Part shown: piece after piece, positions 2,201 to 38,874 of the stretch
How the letters are laid out: the number at the start of each line of letters is the position of its first letter
Numbering within the stretch: the stretch's first letter is position 1
From: Candidatus Thorarchaeota archaeon
GTDB lineage: Archaea; Asgardarchaeota; Thorarchaeia; Thorarchaeales; Thorarchaeaceae
Assembly (NCBI GenBank): GCA_018335335.1
Contig: JAGXKG010000002.1
Coordinates: forward strand, 87,239-151,238
Reading direction: 5' to 3'
DNA length: 64,000 nt
Notes under the pieces: model-generated
Databases searched by the model: none
The model's input: only the letters and a program-made list of their open reading frames with translations
Told to the model about the DNA's origin: nothing
Position numbers and translations under genes: made by a program

Positions 2201-2836
2201 GTGATAGACATGGTAAGAGTTCTCGATTCACTTAGGAAAGCATTATCCTGGGGCCGACATAAGCCGAACATTGCAGAAGTCAAAAGTGACCTTCGGGTGA
2301 TGGCAAAGCAGCTTGAGCGTCAGAGAAACAAACTCGAGCTGGAGGAACGAGAAACCAGAGCCAGAGCTATTAAAGCTCGGAAAGAAGGGAGAACCCCAGC
2401 TTATAAGACATACACTAAAGAAATGGTACGGTTTCGAAGGTATATTCTCTCTATTGAGAAATCCCGAATGCAAATGCTTCGCCTCCTTGCACACGTTACA
2501 AGAGCACAGACGAATGCAAAGGCCAATCATGCATTGGCTGACGTTTCGAAAGTGCTTAGCGTATTGGGAGATGCATTTGATATATCCAGCGTCATAGACC
2601 ATGCCGATGAAATCTCGAGGAGAATAGAGGAATACGAGATTGAAGCCCAAATTTCTGAAGATGCTCTTGGCGTGTCAGTAGGAGGGTCTGAAGGTTCAGA
2701 TGAATTAGCAGCGGCATTCAATGAAATAGACCATGCGGCTGGTATTGAAGGATCAAACACTGATTCGAGAGAGGCAACTGAGATCGATAGGTTGGAGAAA
2801 GATATTAGCTCACTTGAAAATGAGCTCGGTGTATGA
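2201..2836 (+). CDS. ESCRT-III (Snf7/CHMP family) protein
   Basis: 211 aa with a basic N-terminal helical hairpin, an acidic C-terminal half, and a C-terminal MIM-like EIDRLEKDISSLENEL. It is divergently transcribed from vps4. Confidence 0.8.
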   Translation: MIDMVRVLDSLRKALSWGRHKPNIAEVKSDLRVMAKQLERQRNKLELEERETRARAIKARKEGRTPAYKTYTKEMVRFRRYILSIEKSRMQMLRLLAHVTRAQTNAKANHALADVSKVLSVLGDAFDISSVIDHADEISRRIEEYEIEAQISEDALGVSVGGSEGSDELAAAFNEIDHAAGIEGSNTDSREATEIDRLEKDISSLENELGV

Positions 2837-2837
2837 T

Positions 2838-4433
2838 TCACCAACTGAAGAGGTCTCTATTTGAGTCTCTCCAATTGAATCGATGTCTATTCTCATAGGC
2901 TTGGCGCATGAGGCTCCGATATCTTCGTATAAAGTCCTCTGGAACTATCTGCCCATTTCGTAGCATTCTGATTGTTTCACGTATTTCTTCATTGAAATTC
3001 TGATGATTGTCTTCATATCTGTCACTTTCACGATTCCTTCGAGGTTCGTGATACCTATCTCGTATACTTCCAAAGGAATCGTCAGTTTGTCTTGAAGCAC
3101 CTCTAGTAATCGGGCTGGGGTTTCTGCGTTTCTGATAGTCATCACGGCTTGTATGAATGTCGGGTGAAATCTGCGTCCTTCTTGCGGGACTGTTTTCACC
3201 CTCTGTCTTCCGGTGTGTGTCTCTCCTCCCAGAAAGGAGTTGGTATACAAGCCTTTCAATCTGGAGTCTCACTTCACCGGAATTCGTTTTCTGTTGCTCT
3301 AACTTCCGTACGCGTTCCAAGTCCGTTTGTACATATTTATCGAATTGTTTCGCTATCTGAACATAGTCCGGAAGGACTTTCTCAGTTTGCTCTGAACAAT
3401 CGAGCTTTAGATCGCCCTGTTTGAGCTTCATTACCATTCGTTTCCTTATCCGTCCCTCTTCAGAGAAACCTGTATGATAGACAAGAGGAAAATCGAAAAT
3501 GACTTCCATACTCTTACGAATATGGCCAGTCTCGGCAATGAACACAAGACGCCTATTGGTGATGTATAGGGTACCACATGCTTTGTCATTTTTGAGAAAA
3601 TCACTTCCAGCTAACTTGATTTCAGGAAGCGCACACACCGGTAATTCTTTGACTGAGAGCTCTGCATTCTCGTAGAAACTGTTGAATCTTTTTCTGTAAT
3701 AGTTAAGCCCGTCTATTTGTTTCTTTACGTCATCCAATATACTCTTCACTTGGCCCAAAGCTTCGTCTACGCGATTCTTATAGCGCGATCCCAGTTCTTT
3801 GATTCTGTTACTCACTCCATCTATGAATGAGAACTGGGAGGGATTCCATTTTTCTGATGCCATCAAACCTTTGGTCTCTGCTGCTATCTGCTTTGCAACC
3901 ATTTCAGCATTGTTTCCAATCCTCCTCTTTATTGCAGGCATTTCTTCGTGAATCTGTTCGATTTTGCTTTCAAGCCACTTGTAATGAAGAAAGTTGGCCA
4001 TCCGGAGAGAGACAAGCTCTCTCTTGGTTTTGTCCAGTTCATTTCCAAATTCACGGAGTTTGGTGTGACCATATTGTAGGTTCATAACGGATTTTCGTAT
4101 TTCTCTGGAAAGTTCTCCTCGCCTTTTCTCAATAAGAATAAGTCGGGTGGAATGACAGTTGGGGCATCGCTCAATTTTTCTTAATCCCTTGTTCAGATTG
4201 TCAGAGCCACATTCTGGACACTGGCTAGGCTTTTCTTCAAAATCATTGTTATCGATAGTCTGATGGCAATTGCTACATACCATGTATTCTGCGCTATCAA
4301 TTTCAATACAATCAGCACAGATAGCTTCTGCACAATCCTTGCACATATGAGTGGCTTCTGCAGTACTACAATTCTCGCAACTATCTGACTCTGTCTGTCG
4401 ATTCAACGTTTGGCCTCCATGGTCATGTAGCAT
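2838..4433 (-). CDS. Multi-zinc-ribbon, coiled-coil, PH/GRAM-like domain protein with a disordered Arg/Asp/Ser-rich C-terminal tail
   Basis: N-terminus carries four or more CxxC pairs (CENC...CKDC, CADC, CSNC, CPEC...CPNC). A long coiled coil follows. The motif GTLYITNRRLVFIAETG is typical of PH-like GRAM/GLUE/bPH_2 domains. The C-terminal approximately 120 aa are low complexity. Confidence 0.55.
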   Translation of the reverse strand: MLHDHGGQTLNRQTESDSCENCSTAEATHMCKDCAEAICADCIEIDSAEYMVCSNCHQTIDNNDFEEKPSQCPECGSDNLNKGLRKIERCPNCHSTRLILIEKRRGELSREIRKSVMNLQYGHTKLREFGNELDKTKRELVSLRMANFLHYKWLESKIEQIHEEMPAIKRRIGNNAEMVAKQIAAETKGLMASEKWNPSQFSFIDGVSNRIKELGSRYKNRVDEALGQVKSILDDVKKQIDGLNYYRKRFNSFYENAELSVKELPVCALPEIKLAGSDFLKNDKACGTLYITNRRLVFIAETGHIRKSMEVIFDFPLVYHTGFSEEGRIRKRMVMKLKQGDLKLDCSEQTEKVLPDYVQIAKQFDKYVQTDLERVRKLEQQKTNSGEVRLQIERLVYQLLSGRRDTHRKTEGENSPARRTQISPDIHTSRDDYQKRRNPSPITRGASRQTDDSFGSIRDRYHEPRRNRESDRYEDNHQNFNEEIRETIRMLRNGQIVPEDFIRRYRSLMRQAYENRHRFNWRDSNRDLFSW

Positions 4434-11371: not shown

Positions 11372-12715
11372 TTAGCTCTTGCTTAGCATCAGCACATCTC
11401 GCTGAACTACTTGTCCCCTCTTTCGCTCTGGCAGGGTCTCTCTGTTGGGATAGAGCTTAACCCGTTCATCGATTTTCTCTTGACTACCAAGCTGACTTCT
11501 CCTAAGCATTTTCCTTACAGTAAACGGCGTACCGTCTGTCATCTTATACACATCAACATTCACTTGGTTACCCACAGCGTTGATAACCGGTAATGTCATT
11601 CCCACCCGACCACCAGGCCTTAATCTCATAGCAACGACATTGAGAGTTTGTTTGTATAGTGTGGTGAGGTCATCAATGATAGATTTCGCCTTCTTTGGTT
11701 GTGGCGGATTATCGAAAACCGGCCCGAGTTCTGGTTCGAAGGCGATTGCGTCGACGGTTTCTTGAATCAGTTTATCGGTTTCTCTAGCGTCACCCTTAAC
11801 AACCTTGTACTCTAGTCTTTCACCCAAATCCTTACCAAGCCACTTAAGATTCGATCTTGCTCCTTGTGCTGTATTTCCATCCAGTTCAATTCCGATTACG
11901 CGCATACCTAACAAAGCACCTTCCATAAGCAAAGTACCAGTTCCACAGAATGGATCGAGTATGGTATCACCGCTACGAGCCCCTGCTAGGTTTAACAATG
12001 TCCTGCAAATCTTAGGGCTTGTACTGATTTCTGCTGCGACATATGGCCGCGATTCATCACGGTATTTCTGAAGCATTGAATCATAGAGCACAATCGTGTT
12101 TGCGATATACATTCTGTTTCTTGTGAGGAGGATGAGTATCTCCGAGTTGGGCGGCTTATAGAGTGTCTGTTCAGCAACTGTCTGGGGCCACAACGCCATA
12201 TTTGGCATATCCGGATTATTCGGGTCAGTGTCATCATATGCGAAATAGACCGCTCTCCTTGCCCCTTTCTCAGTCAGTTTCCTTTTGGTCCATTCATCAA
12301 GACCCAATGTGAGCTTCTTCAGATCTATCTCGCTTTCATAGTTCACCAACGGGTATGTGCTGAAGCCAAATTTGATTTTCTTACCCTTGATATTTTTCCA
12401 TATCTTGTCAACCCAAGGGCATTCCCGAAGCCGTCCCCTTGCATCTCTGTGGATATTTCCTGCTGCTGGAAATGCTCTGACAGCAAGATCCTTGTTGAAA
12501 TTAGATACTACCTTGCCAATCTTATAGCACCCCCCAAGGGCCTCCTGAATGTCACCTAGTTCACGTGGTTCGAAGTATCTATGCAAGTCGAGGATGATTG
12601 CAGTTCGCGAGTAGTCCACGATTTCATAGTCAATTGCTCTGTCTGTAAGGTATTCTAAGAGCTCTGCGATTGAAAGAGTCCAATTCTTTCCGAGGACAAA
12701 AGCGTATTCAGTCAT
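11372..12715 (-). CDS. THUMP-domain SAM-dependent tRNA (guanine-N2) methyltransferase, Trm11/Trm-G10-like
   Basis: ILDPFCGTGTLLMEGALLGMRVIGIELD is a class I methyltransferase motif I. The N-terminal THUMP-like region matches the Trm11 family. Confidence 0.65.
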   Translation of the reverse strand: MTEYAFVLGKNWTLSIAELLEYLTDRAIDYEIVDYSRTAIILDLHRYFEPRELGDIQEALGGCYKIGKVVSNFNKDLAVRAFPAAGNIHRDARGRLRECPWVDKIWKNIKGKKIKFGFSTYPLVNYESEIDLKKLTLGLDEWTKRKLTEKGARRAVYFAYDDTDPNNPDMPNMALWPQTVAEQTLYKPPNSEILILLTRNRMYIANTIVLYDSMLQKYRDESRPYVAAEISTSPKICRTLLNLAGARSGDTILDPFCGTGTLLMEGALLGMRVIGIELDGNTAQGARSNLKWLGKDLGERLEYKVVKGDARETDKLIQETVDAIAFEPELGPVFDNPPQPKKAKSIIDDLTTLYKQTLNVVAMRLRPGGRVGMTLPVINAVGNQVNVDVYKMTDGTPFTVRKMLRRSQLGSQEKIDERVKLYPNRETLPERKRGQVVQRDVLMLSKS

Positions 12716-22675: not shown

Positions 22676-23356
22676 ATGACGAGAATAGAGTTTCTAGGAA
22701 CGCGGGCGAATACTGATGTAAAAACTCCAAGACATTCGAAGCATTCTGGTGTACTAGTTGATAGTCGTATCCTTCTGGATGTTGGAGAATCCGAGTTCTT
22801 GGAAAATAATCCTGAAGCCATATTCATAACTCATCTTCATCCTGACCATGCATTCTTTGTTAACAACTCCGTGAATTCAATTGATGTACCTATCTATGCT
22901 CCTGAGGAGTCTGAAGAAATCGATATTGAGGTCATTTCTGAGGAAACGACTGTTGGACCTTTTACTGTCACCTCCATACCAACGATACACAGCAAGATTG
23001 TTGAGTCTACAGCATATCTGCTAGAAGACAAGAATCGTCTTCTGTATACCGGTGATATGGTTTGGATTGAGAAGAAGCATCACCACAGATTCGGCGATTT
23101 GGATCTTGTAATTACCGATGGAAGCTTCATTCGAGAAGGGGGAAGAGTATTCGGTGATAATCAAGGCAATGTGTGGGGGCATAAGGGCGTTCCTGATTTG
23201 ATAGATTTCTTCAAAGAATATACTGAGCGGATTATATTCACTCATCTTGGCAAATGGTTGCTTCAGGATGTTGAGACAGGAAAGAACAAGATGGAGCAAT
23301 TCTCTCAAGTAAATGTTGAATTAGCTTATGACGGTATGGTTGTAGAAATAGAATAG
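22676..23356 (+). CDS. Metallo-beta-lactamase-fold hydrolase
   Basis: THLHPDH zinc-binding motif. Confidence 0.65.
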   Translation: MTRIEFLGTRANTDVKTPRHSKHSGVLVDSRILLDVGESEFLENNPEAIFITHLHPDHAFFVNNSVNSIDVPIYAPEESEEIDIEVISEETTVGPFTVTSIPTIHSKIVESTAYLLEDKNRLLYTGDMVWIEKKHHHRFGDLDLVITDGSFIREGGRVFGDNQGNVWGHKGVPDLIDFFKEYTERIIFTHLGKWLLQDVETGKNKMEQFSQVNVELAYDGMVVEIE

Positions 23357-23421
23357 GGCGCATTCTAGCTGCCAAGAAGGAATAAGATAATAAGCCTTCC
23401 AGATTTTTCAGAATTAGTAAT

Positions 23422-23524
23422 GGCCGAGATGGGGTAGACTGCCTGATTCTATTAGGCAGGCCCTATGGCAACCTTGGGGATTGTGGCTCCCTAGCCGCGG
23501 GTTCAATTCCCGCTCTCGGCCCCA
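23422..23524 (+). tRNA. tRNA-His (GUG) with encoded G-1 and CCA, carrying an approximately 25-nt insertion (putative non-canonical intron) in the D-loop
   Basis: Acceptor GCCGAGA/TCTCGGC preceded by G-1 that pairs with C73. Anticodon arm GGGGA-TTGTGGC-TCCCT with U33, GUG and G37. T-arm GCGGG-TTCAATT-CCCGC. D-stem GGGT/ACCT encloses a 35-nt loop that contains the hairpin CTGCCT...AGGCAG. Confidence 0.7.
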
Positions 23525-32775: not shown

Positions 32776-32893
32776 GCGGAGGTTGCCAAGCCCGGTTAAC
32801 GGCGCTAGACTCAGACTCTAGACCGCTGGAACATTTTTCCAGTGGGGAAAATCTCGTAGGAGTTCGCGAGTTCAAATCTCGCCCTCCGCACCA
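32776..32893 (+). tRNA. tRNA-Leu (CAG) with encoded CCA and a 30-nt insertion (putative non-canonical intron) between the anticodon stem and the variable arm
   Basis: Acceptor GCGGAGG/CCTCCGC, discriminator A, CCA. Anticodon arm CTAGA-CTCAGAC-TCTAG. Class II variable arm TCTCGTAGGAGTTC. T-arm GCGAG-TTCAAAT-CTCGC. The extra segment 32822-32851 forms the hairpin CTGGAA...TTCCAG. Length without it is 88 nt, typical for tRNA-Leu plus CCA. Confidence 0.75.
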
Positions 32894-37008: not shown

Positions 37009-38874
37009 CTACGCGATTCTGCCATATTTCTTCACGGGTGTCCTATGTCCTATCCTGTCCCCCGGAAGACTATCTAACAACCGTCGTATTCGCTCAGATT
37101 TATCCATCAAATCATCCTCATTCTCTTGAAATGCCATGAGCGCAGTTGTGAAGTTCTTCTCTTTCAGTGCCTTCAGCACAGGAATCAGAGCAGTAATCTC
37201 ATCTTTGTTTTCAGCTCGTGCAATTTCCTCCAGTGCTTGTACTGTCTTTTCGATATCCTCTTCCCTTTCGGAAAAATGAAGGAAAAGCCCCTCGAAGACA
37301 CTAAAGAGATCCTCGAATGCGTCAGCCTTCTCACCGATGCGGTTGAAAGTTGAAGAAGATTCCTGTAATAATTGAATCCCTTGTTCAATTGTTTCCGAAT
37401 TTCCGGAACGAAGTGCTTCTCTACCCGCAGTCCTGTTCCAAATGGCGCTGAGCTCAGAAACGCCCAGTTCTTCATACATATTTGCTGCTTCTTTTGCTTT
37501 TTCACTGGCCTTCACATGGAATGAAGAGGCATCTTTTTCAGATTCAAGTCTATTTGAGCACTCAGCAGCCTTACTGAAATACTCCGAAGCTTCACCCGGT
37601 TGGCCCGTTTCAGATGCTGTCTCAGCAAGCTCGACATAGATTCCAAGTGCTTGAGCTAGCGTTTCCTTAGCTTTCTCTTCTTGGTTGGCTTCTCGCATTA
37701 CCTTGGCAGCTTCCTCGAATGATGTGGCTTGTCTTTCCTTCCGACCTCTTTCCTTCTCTATCTGAGCCCTTTTGAGATAGAAATCAATGACTTTCGCGTA
37801 GATTTCATTGGCCTTCTCTTCCTTCCCCCATTCCCTTAAGCACATAGCTCTATAGCGACGATATTTGTTCTCAGTTTCGTCGTCCTCTTCGAGCGCTGCG
37901 GCATCAGCAAGCTCGCCGAATAGGTTACCTGCACGCTTGTATGCCCACCTTGCTTTCATAATTCGTCCAGCTTTCCGAAAGAGCTCACCTGCTCTAACCA
38001 AAAGAGGTGCTACAACGTTAGGGGCACCAGTCATTTTTGTATATGCTTCTGCAGCTTTTGTTGCTGCCTTATTCTGACCACTTGAAAGCCGCTCAAAACC
38101 GTATGCCTCTTGGGCTGCATCATAGATATTGCCTGCCTTTTCGAATAGCTCTGCTTTTTCGTATTTCTTTCCTGCTTTCATCATCAGCGGAATAGCCTCA
38201 GCAGTCTCATCTTCGCTTTGCATGATTTGAGCTGCTTCTGCGAGAGCGTTTCCTGCTGCAAGATAATCTCCCTTAGATTCTGAGATATCTGCCCATTGGG
38301 AAGCTAACCGAATTGCCCTCTCATGGATTCTGTTCCCCAGATCTTCATCATCTACAGTGTAATAGAGACGGCCCACTTTCTTGAGAAGTTCGACTGCTTT
38401 GTCTAATTCCTTGTTATCCTCATGAATATCTGCAAGATTCTCTAGAGCGTCCGCTGCTCTTATGGTGAGTCTATCCTTCACCTCATCGTCAGCTGCGAAA
38501 TCTTTGCTTCGAAAGTAGAAATCAGCCGCTTTCTTATATTCCTCTAGTTGTTCAGCAATCATTCCTCCGTTCTCGTTCAGTGCTACGATTGATTCGTGTA
38601 TTTCGGGATCTGAGTCCTGACGAATGAATGCTAACGTAGCCTTCTCTACGAGATTAAAGCAGGCCTCCTTTTTTCCCTCCTCGCTATAGATGTTGCTAGC
38701 TTCGATATAGAGATTTTTTGCCCATTGTGGTTTTTGGCTTGATACCAGCTGGTTGGCTGCCTCTTCAAGCAATTCCGCGGCATGTATTGACTTTCCATTT
38801 CGAATTGCTTCTCTTGCTGCTTTTACTGTTTCTTCAGCTGACTTCATGGGTCCTCTCTCGTGAGGTGGATGCAA
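37009..38874 (-). CDS. TPR-repeat protein
   Basis: Repeated 34-residue A/Y/L-rich helical motifs throughout its 621 aa. Confidence 0.75.
   Translation of the reverse strand: MHPPHERGPMKSAEETVKAAREAIRNGKSIHAAELLEEAANQLVSSQKPQWAKNLYIEASNIYSEEGKKEACFNLVEKATLAFIRQDSDPEIHESIVALNENGGMIAEQLEEYKKAADFYFRSKDFAADDEVKDRLTIRAADALENLADIHEDNKELDKAVELLKKVGRLYYTVDDEDLGNRIHERAIRLASQWADISESKGDYLAAGNALAEAAQIMQSEDETAEAIPLMMKAGKKYEKAELFEKAGNIYDAAQEAYGFERLSSGQNKAATKAAEAYTKMTGAPNVVAPLLVRAGELFRKAGRIMKARWAYKRAGNLFGELADAAALEEDDETENKYRRYRAMCLREWGKEEKANEIYAKVIDFYLKRAQIEKERGRKERQATSFEEAAKVMREANQEEKAKETLAQALGIYVELAETASETGQPGEASEYFSKAAECSNRLESEKDASSFHVKASEKAKEAANMYEELGVSELSAIWNRTAGREALRSGNSETIEQGIQLLQESSSTFNRIGEKADAFEDLFSVFEGLFLHFSEREEDIEKTVQALEEIARAENKDEITALIPVLKALKEKNFTTALMAFQENEDDLMDKSERIRRLLDSLPGDRIGHRTPVKKYGRIA

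Follow-up and report, generated by a model that had tools for sequence, protein, structure and literature searches.

Non-canonical introns of the BHB and HBh' types were reportedly described in crenarchaeal and nanoarchaeal tRNA genes by Marck and Grosjean in 2003 and by Sugahara in 2008. In the canonical bulge-helix-bulge (BHB) motif, as set out in a review (PMC4090602), a 4-bp helix takes one of its strands from the 5' exon, and cleavage occurs in the 3-nt bulge next to it, after the second base. BHB and HBh' introns at non-canonical positions are the classic property of Thermoproteales, and reviews place them in crenarchaeal and nanoarchaeal tRNAs (PMC4090602, PMC6379350). Relaxed motifs are efficiently removed only by enzymes of the (αβ)2 and ε2 types, and D-loop locations are among those reported for introns of archaeal pre-tRNAs (PMC6379350). 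Asgard archaea, including one represented by a Thorarchaeota genome, possess an (αβ)2 EndA with an L1 loop and broad specificity (PMC5829648). In Atabeyarchaeia and Freyarchaeia, 92-95% of tRNA genes bear introns, in many cases more than one, and non-canonical positions are frequent among them (PMC11291895); a tRNA-His(GTG) gene of Atabeyarchaeia-2 has a single 39-nt intron in the region of the D-arm, with gene base 14 as its start (PMC11291895, Supplementary Data 4). According to Kaneta et al. 2018, incomplete Asgard tRNA sets point to undetected disrupted genes.

Here we describe a tRNA-His(GUG) gene with an enlarged D-loop in a 64-kb window (the whole stretch of DNA that was analysed, 64,000 nucleotides), and we conclude that it is very probably a functional, single-intron gene of a Thorarchaeota-like Asgard archaeon, the transcript of which would be spliced. 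Its predicted intron resembles the crenarchaeal and nanoarchaeal BHB/HBh' introns in being short, presumably protein-spliced and located outside 37/38, in combining a 4-bp helix with a 3-nt bulge, and in having one bulge open. It differs from the crenarchaeal introns in its host, which is not a hyperthermophilic crenarchaeon but an Asgard archaeon whose tRNA stems are moderately rich in G+C, and position 15/16 does not appear among those (20/21, 22/23, 25/26 and others) that the consulted passages of the review text name (PMC4090602). With the introns of other Asgard archaea, including those in a survey of Thorarchaeota SMTZ1-83, it shares the superphylum, in which non-canonical positions are abundant (PMC11291895, PMC5829648). 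Compared by description, it is unlike the tRNA-His intron of Atabeyarchaeia-2 in lineage, in length (28-29 versus 39 nt) and, slightly, in where it starts. The D-arm and T-arm introns in tRNA genes of nucleomorphs and of the Cyanidioschyzon merolae nucleus, as portrayed in PMC4090602 and PMC3728597, likewise include short, ectopic introns of the D arm, in C. merolae with BHB-like determinants; unlike the present case, these have eukaryotic hosts and a eukaryotic endonuclease, and no relationship is implied.

Results

Gene Architecture and Detection

The window holds a complete tRNA-His(GUG) gene with 28 surplus bases in its D-loop (Table 1), which lies inside a 299-bp intergenic gap and is overlapped by no ORF of at least 80 aa. 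The locus has the features by which a tRNA-His is recognized, namely a cloverleaf that fits the general covariance model for tRNAs, a GUG anticodon, and G-1 opposite C73; every orthologue and the two intron-less outgroups likewise have the latter three (GUG, G-1 and C73). Each of the elements listed in the original prediction, made from the letters of the window, is found when the gene is read base by base: the G-1:C73 acceptor, the GUG anticodon arm, the variable loop, the T arm and the CCA are all there, the D-stem GGGT/ACCT does enclose 35 nt, and the hairpin CTGCCT/AGGCAG lies within them. Its estimate of about 25 nt for the insertion was too low, since the insert, which separates tRNA position 15 from 16, comes to 28 nt both in the alignment to the Rfam tRNA model and on excision.

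Table 1. Coordinates of the tRNA-His(GUG) gene, its predicted intron and splicing motif, other features of the window, and comparison loci.
Feature	Coordinates	Strand	Description
RNA methyltransferase-domain protein	11372-12715	-	447 aa; UPF0020/RMKL-like domain
MBL-fold hydrolase	22676-23356	+	226 aa; ends 66 nt before tRNA-His
Upstream block	23369..23396	+	CTGCCAAGAAGGAATAAGATAATAAGCC, 28 nt; -53 to -26 from G-1; A/T-rich TATA-like core
tRNA-His(GUG), whole gene	23422-23524	+	GGCCGAGATGGGGTAGACTGCCTGATTCTATTAGGCAGGCCCTATGGCAACCTTGGGGATTGTGGCTCCCTAGCCGCGGGTTCAATTCCCGCTCTCGGCCCCA
Exon 1	23422..23437	+	G-1, acceptor 5' strand GCCGAGA, U8 G9, D-stem GGGU (23432-35), A14 G15; 16/16 columns invariant in six lineages
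G-1	23422	+	opposite C73 (23521)
Acceptor stem	23423-29 / 23514-20	+	read from sequence
D-stem	23432-35 / 23471-74	+	GGGT / ACCT; encloses 35 nt
Central helix H, 5' strand	23432..23435	+	GGGU; doubles as mature D-stem 5' strand; pairs with GCCC in minimum-free-energy fold
5' bulge	23436..23438	+	AGA, 3 nt; unpaired in single-sequence and alignment folds; invariant
Intron (predicted)	23438..23465	+	28 nt, ACTGCCTGATTCTATTAGGCAGGCCCTA; between tRNA positions 15 and 16
Inner helix h'	23439-44 / 23454-59	+	CUGCCU / AGGCAG; 6 bp, 9-nt loop 23445-53
Central helix H, 3' strand	23460..23463	+	GCCC; intronic partner of D-stem 5' strand
3' splice site (predicted)	23464..23466	+	UAU; loop, not strict bulge (no closing outer helix)
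Exon 2	23466..23524	+	D-loop remainder UGGCA, D-stem ACCU, anticodon arm, variable loop, T arm, acceptor 3' strand, C73, CCA; 59/59 columns invariant in six lineages
Anticodon arm	23476-92	+	anticodon GTG 23483-85; read from sequence
Variable loop of tRNA-His		+	4 nt; read from sequence
T arm	23497-513	+	read from sequence
C73	23521	+	
Encoded CCA	23522-24	+	
tRNA-Leu(CAG)	32776-32893	+	118 nt; anticodon arm intact (32805-32821); insertion roughly 32822-32851
SNAP-like protein	37009-38874	-	621 aa
L023			Thorarchaeota MAG; intron-bearing, locus syntenic with window
L145			JGI; intron 28 nt
L151			NCBI Promethearchaeia MAG; intron 28 nt
L155 = L156 = L157			Logan, JGI; intron 29 nt, one additional loop base
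L158			JGI; intron 28 nt
L153 tRNA-His, intron-less	3384-3457	-	adjoins orthologous aminotransferase
L160 tRNA-His, intron-less	2766-2839	-	about 3 kb from MfnA

Automated detection of this gene is poor. Run over the whole window, default ARAGORN called no tRNA and Rfam at gathering scores returned no match, a silence that would also suit a tRNA pseudogene broken by an insertion. On a tight slice with permissive filters, the Rfam tRNA model RF00005 (gathering score 29) matched at full length over 23423-23521 with 35.5 bits (E=1.7e-6, model positions 1-71); 33 nt stand where the model has 5 D-loop positions, hence the 28-nt excess. The intron mode of ARAGORN wrongly labels the locus tRNA-Ala(ggc), and its calls were disregarded; this mode models anticodon-loop introns only, and the labels that it gave to these genes were tRNA-Ala, Lys, His(atg), Ile and Pro. 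Nor can ARAGORN locate the junction, since in a scan of 735 deletions 533 passed and the anticodons that it assigned to them varied. A scan for sigma-70 promoters and intrinsic terminators gave nothing relevant, as expected for an archaeon.

Removal of the predicted intron changes this picture. Deleting 23438-23465 leaves a 75-nt sequence that default ARAGORN calls as a canonical tRNA-His(gtg) of 74 bases. The restoration of a canonical tRNA by excision at the predicted sites is a feature expected of an intron of the relaxed kind. After excision the D-loop reads AGUGGCA, its 7 nt being the same as in intron-less haloarchaeal tRNA-His genes found by genome scan; the D-loops of intron-less relatives are also 7 nt long (AATGGCA in L153, AATGGTA in L160).

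A Predicted Relaxed Splicing Motif Built on the D-Stem

Unconstrained folding recovers the AGA bulge, the inner hairpin and the GGGU/GCCC helix, as does RNAalifold on the six orthologues. When the remaining arms are constrained, the energies are -43.1 kcal/mol for the BHB conformer and -38.9 kcal/mol for the mature-D-stem conformer, favoring the former by 4.2 kcal/mol. In the minimum-free-energy and alignment folds the UAU of the 3' site (U64-A65-U66) pairs weakly with A7-U8-G9; in L023 the middle base of this site is C (A in the other five lineages), and one of these pairs is broken. No outer helix h could be drawn by manual parse, as A29 U30 G31 cannot pair with G67 G68 C69. Of the elements of a strict BHB (hBHBh'), the 4-bp central helix and the 3-nt 5' bulge are present and the closed 3' bulge is absent; the motif is not a strict BHB because its 3' bulge has no closing outer helix. 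What is found is the relaxed HBh'/bulge-helix-loop (BHL) geometry as defined in PMC6379350 and PMC4090602, with an intact bulge between H and h' and the other site 4 bp away in an open loop. Folding around the insertion, which had been put forward as a check, does yield a motif, in its relaxed form. A second helix-bulge-helix match, with H formed by GCCG 23423-26 and UGGC 23466-69, was rejected; cutting there deletes the D arm.

Following the canonical BHB geometry outlined in PMC4090602, the 5' cut is predicted to fall after 23437 (AG↓A), and the 3' cut would lie after 23465 (UA↓U). An alternative 5' junction one base later (AGA↓...↓UGGCA), judged by the same letters, is conceivable and would give an 8-nt D-loop. 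How much weight can the motif bear? On both strands of the window there are 354 helix(4)-bulge(3)-hairpin motifs, equivalent to 2.8 per kb, a density that falls to 1.1 per kb when an inner helix of at least 6 bp is required, and because the bare motif is so frequent by chance, the motif alone proves nothing. The probability of meeting it in the one register that restores the tRNA is of the order of 10^-3. The exact register on the D-stem, taken together with conservation in six lineages, is not chance.

Conservation across Six Intron-Bearing Lineages

Six distinct sequences were compared: the window, L023, L145, L151, L155 (identical to L156 and L157) and L158, five of the six lineages having been located via flanking proteins, independently of the tRNA sequence. 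The insert occupies the identical site in all six. Their exons are identical at 75 of 75 positions, against a mean pairwise identity of 73% within the intron and of 53% within the 3' flank. All variable columns are intronic (17 of 29 intron columns versus 0 of 75 exon columns), and they are distributed over the loop (8/10), the inner helix (7/12), helix H (1/4) and the intronic bases of the 3' bulge (1/2). The variable base 23465 lies just inside the predicted 3' boundary. Conserved exons, with an intron that varies except where pairing is needed, are again the pattern of a relaxed intron.

Pairing is maintained throughout this variation. Helix H is paired in 24 of 24 cells, with two G-C to G·U changes, and the inner helix in 35 of 36 in spite of variation in five of its six pairs. 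The two-sided changes in the inner helix are G:C to A:U in L151 and, with the window as reference, U:A to C:G in L158; wobble changes from C-G to U·G and from U-A to U·G occur several times. Overall, 99.4% of cells are paired, as compared with at most 61% when the partners are slid by 1-3 columns. Formal statistics give the covariation weak support, with 123 of 500 shuffles reaching the observed score, as is to be expected of six close sequences, and against the consensus a two-sided change affects one pair only. By our own tally, about 8 of 9 helix substitution events keep pairing (P ~0.02 against a crude null of 50% neutral expectation). Because this count is our own and its null is crude, covariation is taken as supportive only, and the main argument, as drawn from the alignment, is the contrast between exons and intron.

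This contrast bears directly on the pseudogene reading, in which the default searches miss the gene for the simple reason that it is broken. Decay would also alter the exons; these are identical at all 75 positions in six lineages whose flanks are only 53-80% identical, the upstream block is invariant in the same six, and substitutions are confined to the insert, where those in helices keep pairing in all but one case. We regard a pseudogene as exceedingly improbable. The Rfam scores of the genes compared are 59.4 and 59.7 bits for the intron-less outgroups, 42.4 for L023, the exons of which are identical to those of the window, and 35.5 for the window.

Could the insert be retained, in a tRNA that functions with an enlarged D-arm bearing an extra hairpin? 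The structural conservation of the hairpin is in keeping with this idea, and the strong purifying selection on the exons speaks for function and is not proof of splicing. In an unspliced molecule, however, the intronic GCCC would disrupt the D-stem, the 3' strand of which it outcompetes by the above 4.2 kcal/mol, and the helix-bulge-helix register is exactly the one from which excision leaves a D-loop of 7 nt, the same as in intron-less homologues. It also counts against retention that a functional tRNA with a 35-nt D-loop is not known. On balance, a retained insert is very unlikely, and a spliced intron is the reading that we prefer.

We lend almost no credence to a third alternative, which would see in the insert a trace left by a mobile element or repeat, or an error of assembly; no observation was found to speak for it. 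The 28-mer is unique in the window even allowing 3 mismatches, a short-word BLAST found no significant similarity elsewhere in the window, and comparison with the tRNA-Leu insertion revealed neither similarity nor a repeat in the window. Being unique and unrelated to that insertion, the 28-mer is not a repeat. Assemblies of NCBI, JGI and Logan, independent of one another, all contain it, and it is therefore not an assembly artefact; group I and group II introns are much longer than 28 nt.

Host, Outgroups, and Distribution of the Intron

Judging from its encoded proteins, the host is an Asgard (Thorarchaeota-like) archaeon. Genes of the window include archaeal MfnA (above the NCBIfam cut-off), HypB, CbiM/Q and TFB; its MBL-fold protein and its MfnA are each 100% identical to a protein of a MAG named 'Candidatus Thorarchaeota archaeon', and the L023 locus is syntenic with the window, the DNA of the two being about 75% identical across 6.4 kb. 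Identities of MfnA run from 100% through 87% and 77% to about 60% for other Thorarchaeota, a drop which indicates that the window belongs to a small, distinct clade. Where measured, MfnA of the intron-bearing lineages is 77-100% identical.

The two intron-less tRNA-His genes, L153 and L160, come from lineages whose MfnA is 56-59% identical to that of the window, and their acceptor and D stems differ (GCCCGAG; GTGT). They were compared by eye, the MAFFT alignment including intron-less genes having misplaced the gap. Their state suggests that the intron was gained within the clade of the window, or lost elsewhere. As far as sampled, the intron occurs in a single small Thorarchaeota-like clade only, and the two outgroup lineages lack it. 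Several other loci were set aside: around homologues of the MBL protein at about 60% identity (L146-L150) and of the aminotransferase (L152) synteny is lost and there is no tRNA-His nearby, and L154 is uninformative, its contig beginning within the T arm. A metagenome scan with the pattern GGGGTAGN{20,50}TTGTGGN{12,13}GGGTTCRANTCCC, which proved ill suited, returned 120 loci, each of them a bacterial tRNA-His gene, another tRNA gene (archaeal tRNA-Leu, it appears) or a match by chance upstream. An example of an anchored tRNA-His DNA pattern for Thorarchaeia is GCCGAGATGGGGTAG...ACCTTGGGGATTGTGG.

Upstream Block and Other Features of the Window

The block CTGCCAAGAAGGAATAAGATAATAAGCC upstream of the gene is invariant in all six intron-bearing lineages, where sequence farther upstream and the 3' flank diverge. 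From its composition and placement, with the core where a TATA box is expected, it is probably an archaeal promoter (BRE/TATA). The element AGATTTTTC, at about -22 to -14 from tRNA-His, is likewise conserved.

The MBL-fold hydrolase encoded upstream has weak similarity to RNase Z and PhnP, far under the family cut-offs, and its homologues are named 'ribonuclease BN (tRNA processing enzyme)' by JGI. Its gene adjoins tRNA-His in four of the five other intron-bearing lineages, two short ORFs taking its place in L151.

A second disrupted tRNA gene in the window, for tRNA-Leu(CAG), carries an insertion of about 28-30 nt with a 9-bp hairpin (CCGCTGGAA/TTCCAGTGG), which separates the anticodon stem from a variable region of 14 nt that looks normal. 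It too is missed by default ARAGORN and by Rfam at gathering scores; ARAGORN in intron mode places its intron approximately, at i(41,21), and a candidate central helix has three of four pairs in either register. Both tRNA genes of the window, for tRNA-His and tRNA-Leu(CAG), thus have insertions at non-canonical positions.

Two further proteins deserve mention. Soluble NSF attachment protein (SNAP) is a eukaryote-type family, and the 621-aa protein has an N-terminal match to it (PF14938, E=1.7e-16) and, in addition, TPR repeats; by this domain content it may be a protein of the Asgard 'eukaryotic signature' kind. The 447-aa protein with the UPF0020/RMKL-like domain may be a tRNA or rRNA modification enzyme, to go by the domain.

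Discussion

Our analyses of the tRNA-His(GUG) locus revealed a D-stem strand shared between the mature tRNA and a relaxed splicing motif, a product of excision that is canonical, and exons that are invariant in six lineages. In conjunction with what has been described for other Asgard archaea, we infer the following pathway, from the role of the promoter and the enzymes to the exact cut sites and splicing itself. Transcription would start from the conserved, promoter-like upstream element. In the precursor, the D-stem strand GGGU would pair with the intronic GCCC in place of its mature partner ACCU, and the resulting 4-bp helix, the AGA bulge and the 6-bp inner hairpin would form a relaxed BHB (HBh'/BHL). 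An EndA of the (αβ)2 type with an L1 loop would cut after 23437 and after 23465, and an RNA ligase, which in archaea is RtcB, would join the exons at G15-U16, giving the spliced junction ...GGGGUAG followed by UGGCAACC... The D-stem would then re-form with ACCU to yield a 75-nt tRNA, from G-1 to CCA, with the D-loop AGUGGCA. None of the 30 scanned ORFs of the 64-kb window encodes EndA or RtcB.

The original prediction of an archaeal BHB intron at a non-canonical D-loop position is borne out by the register of the fold, the canonical product, the recurrence in six lineages and the Asgard host, with the reservation that the motif is of the relaxed HBh'/BHL type and not a strict BHB. Its further view, that outside Thermoproteales-like lineages introns of this sort are seldom met, has been overtaken, as Asgard genomes are rich in them (PMC11291895). 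The intron is well supported but ordinary for the Asgard group, and it changes no current concept.

How might the intron have arisen? Its 3' part, AGGCAGGCCCU, is loosely like the start of exon 2, UGGCAACCU (23454-23474 (+)), with about 7 of 10 aligned bases in common, a likeness that is without statistical support and partly forced by pairing constraints. It is conceivable, if unlikely, that the intron is a recent, clade-specific gain, perhaps via local duplication of the D-loop and the 3' segment of the D-stem, of which AGGCAGGCCCU and UGGCAACCU would be the two copies. Such a duplication would automatically create an alternative helix with the 5' strand of the D-stem. If this scenario were true, the origin of a BHB intron could be dated here, and in those archaea that stand closest to eukaryotes.

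What is the relevance of the gene for its group? With both tRNAs of the window missed by default tools, genomes of this clade would seem to be without tRNA-His and tRNA-Leu(CAG). Missed tRNAs distort estimates of completeness and of decoding, the same gap that Kaneta et al. 2018 flagged for Asgard archaea. The predicted intron adds a clade-restricted D-loop example to the growing catalogue of non-canonical tRNA introns in Asgard archaea and, with a relaxed motif in which the D-stem serves as central helix, would provide a compact natural substrate for examining the specificity of the Asgard (αβ)2 endonuclease.
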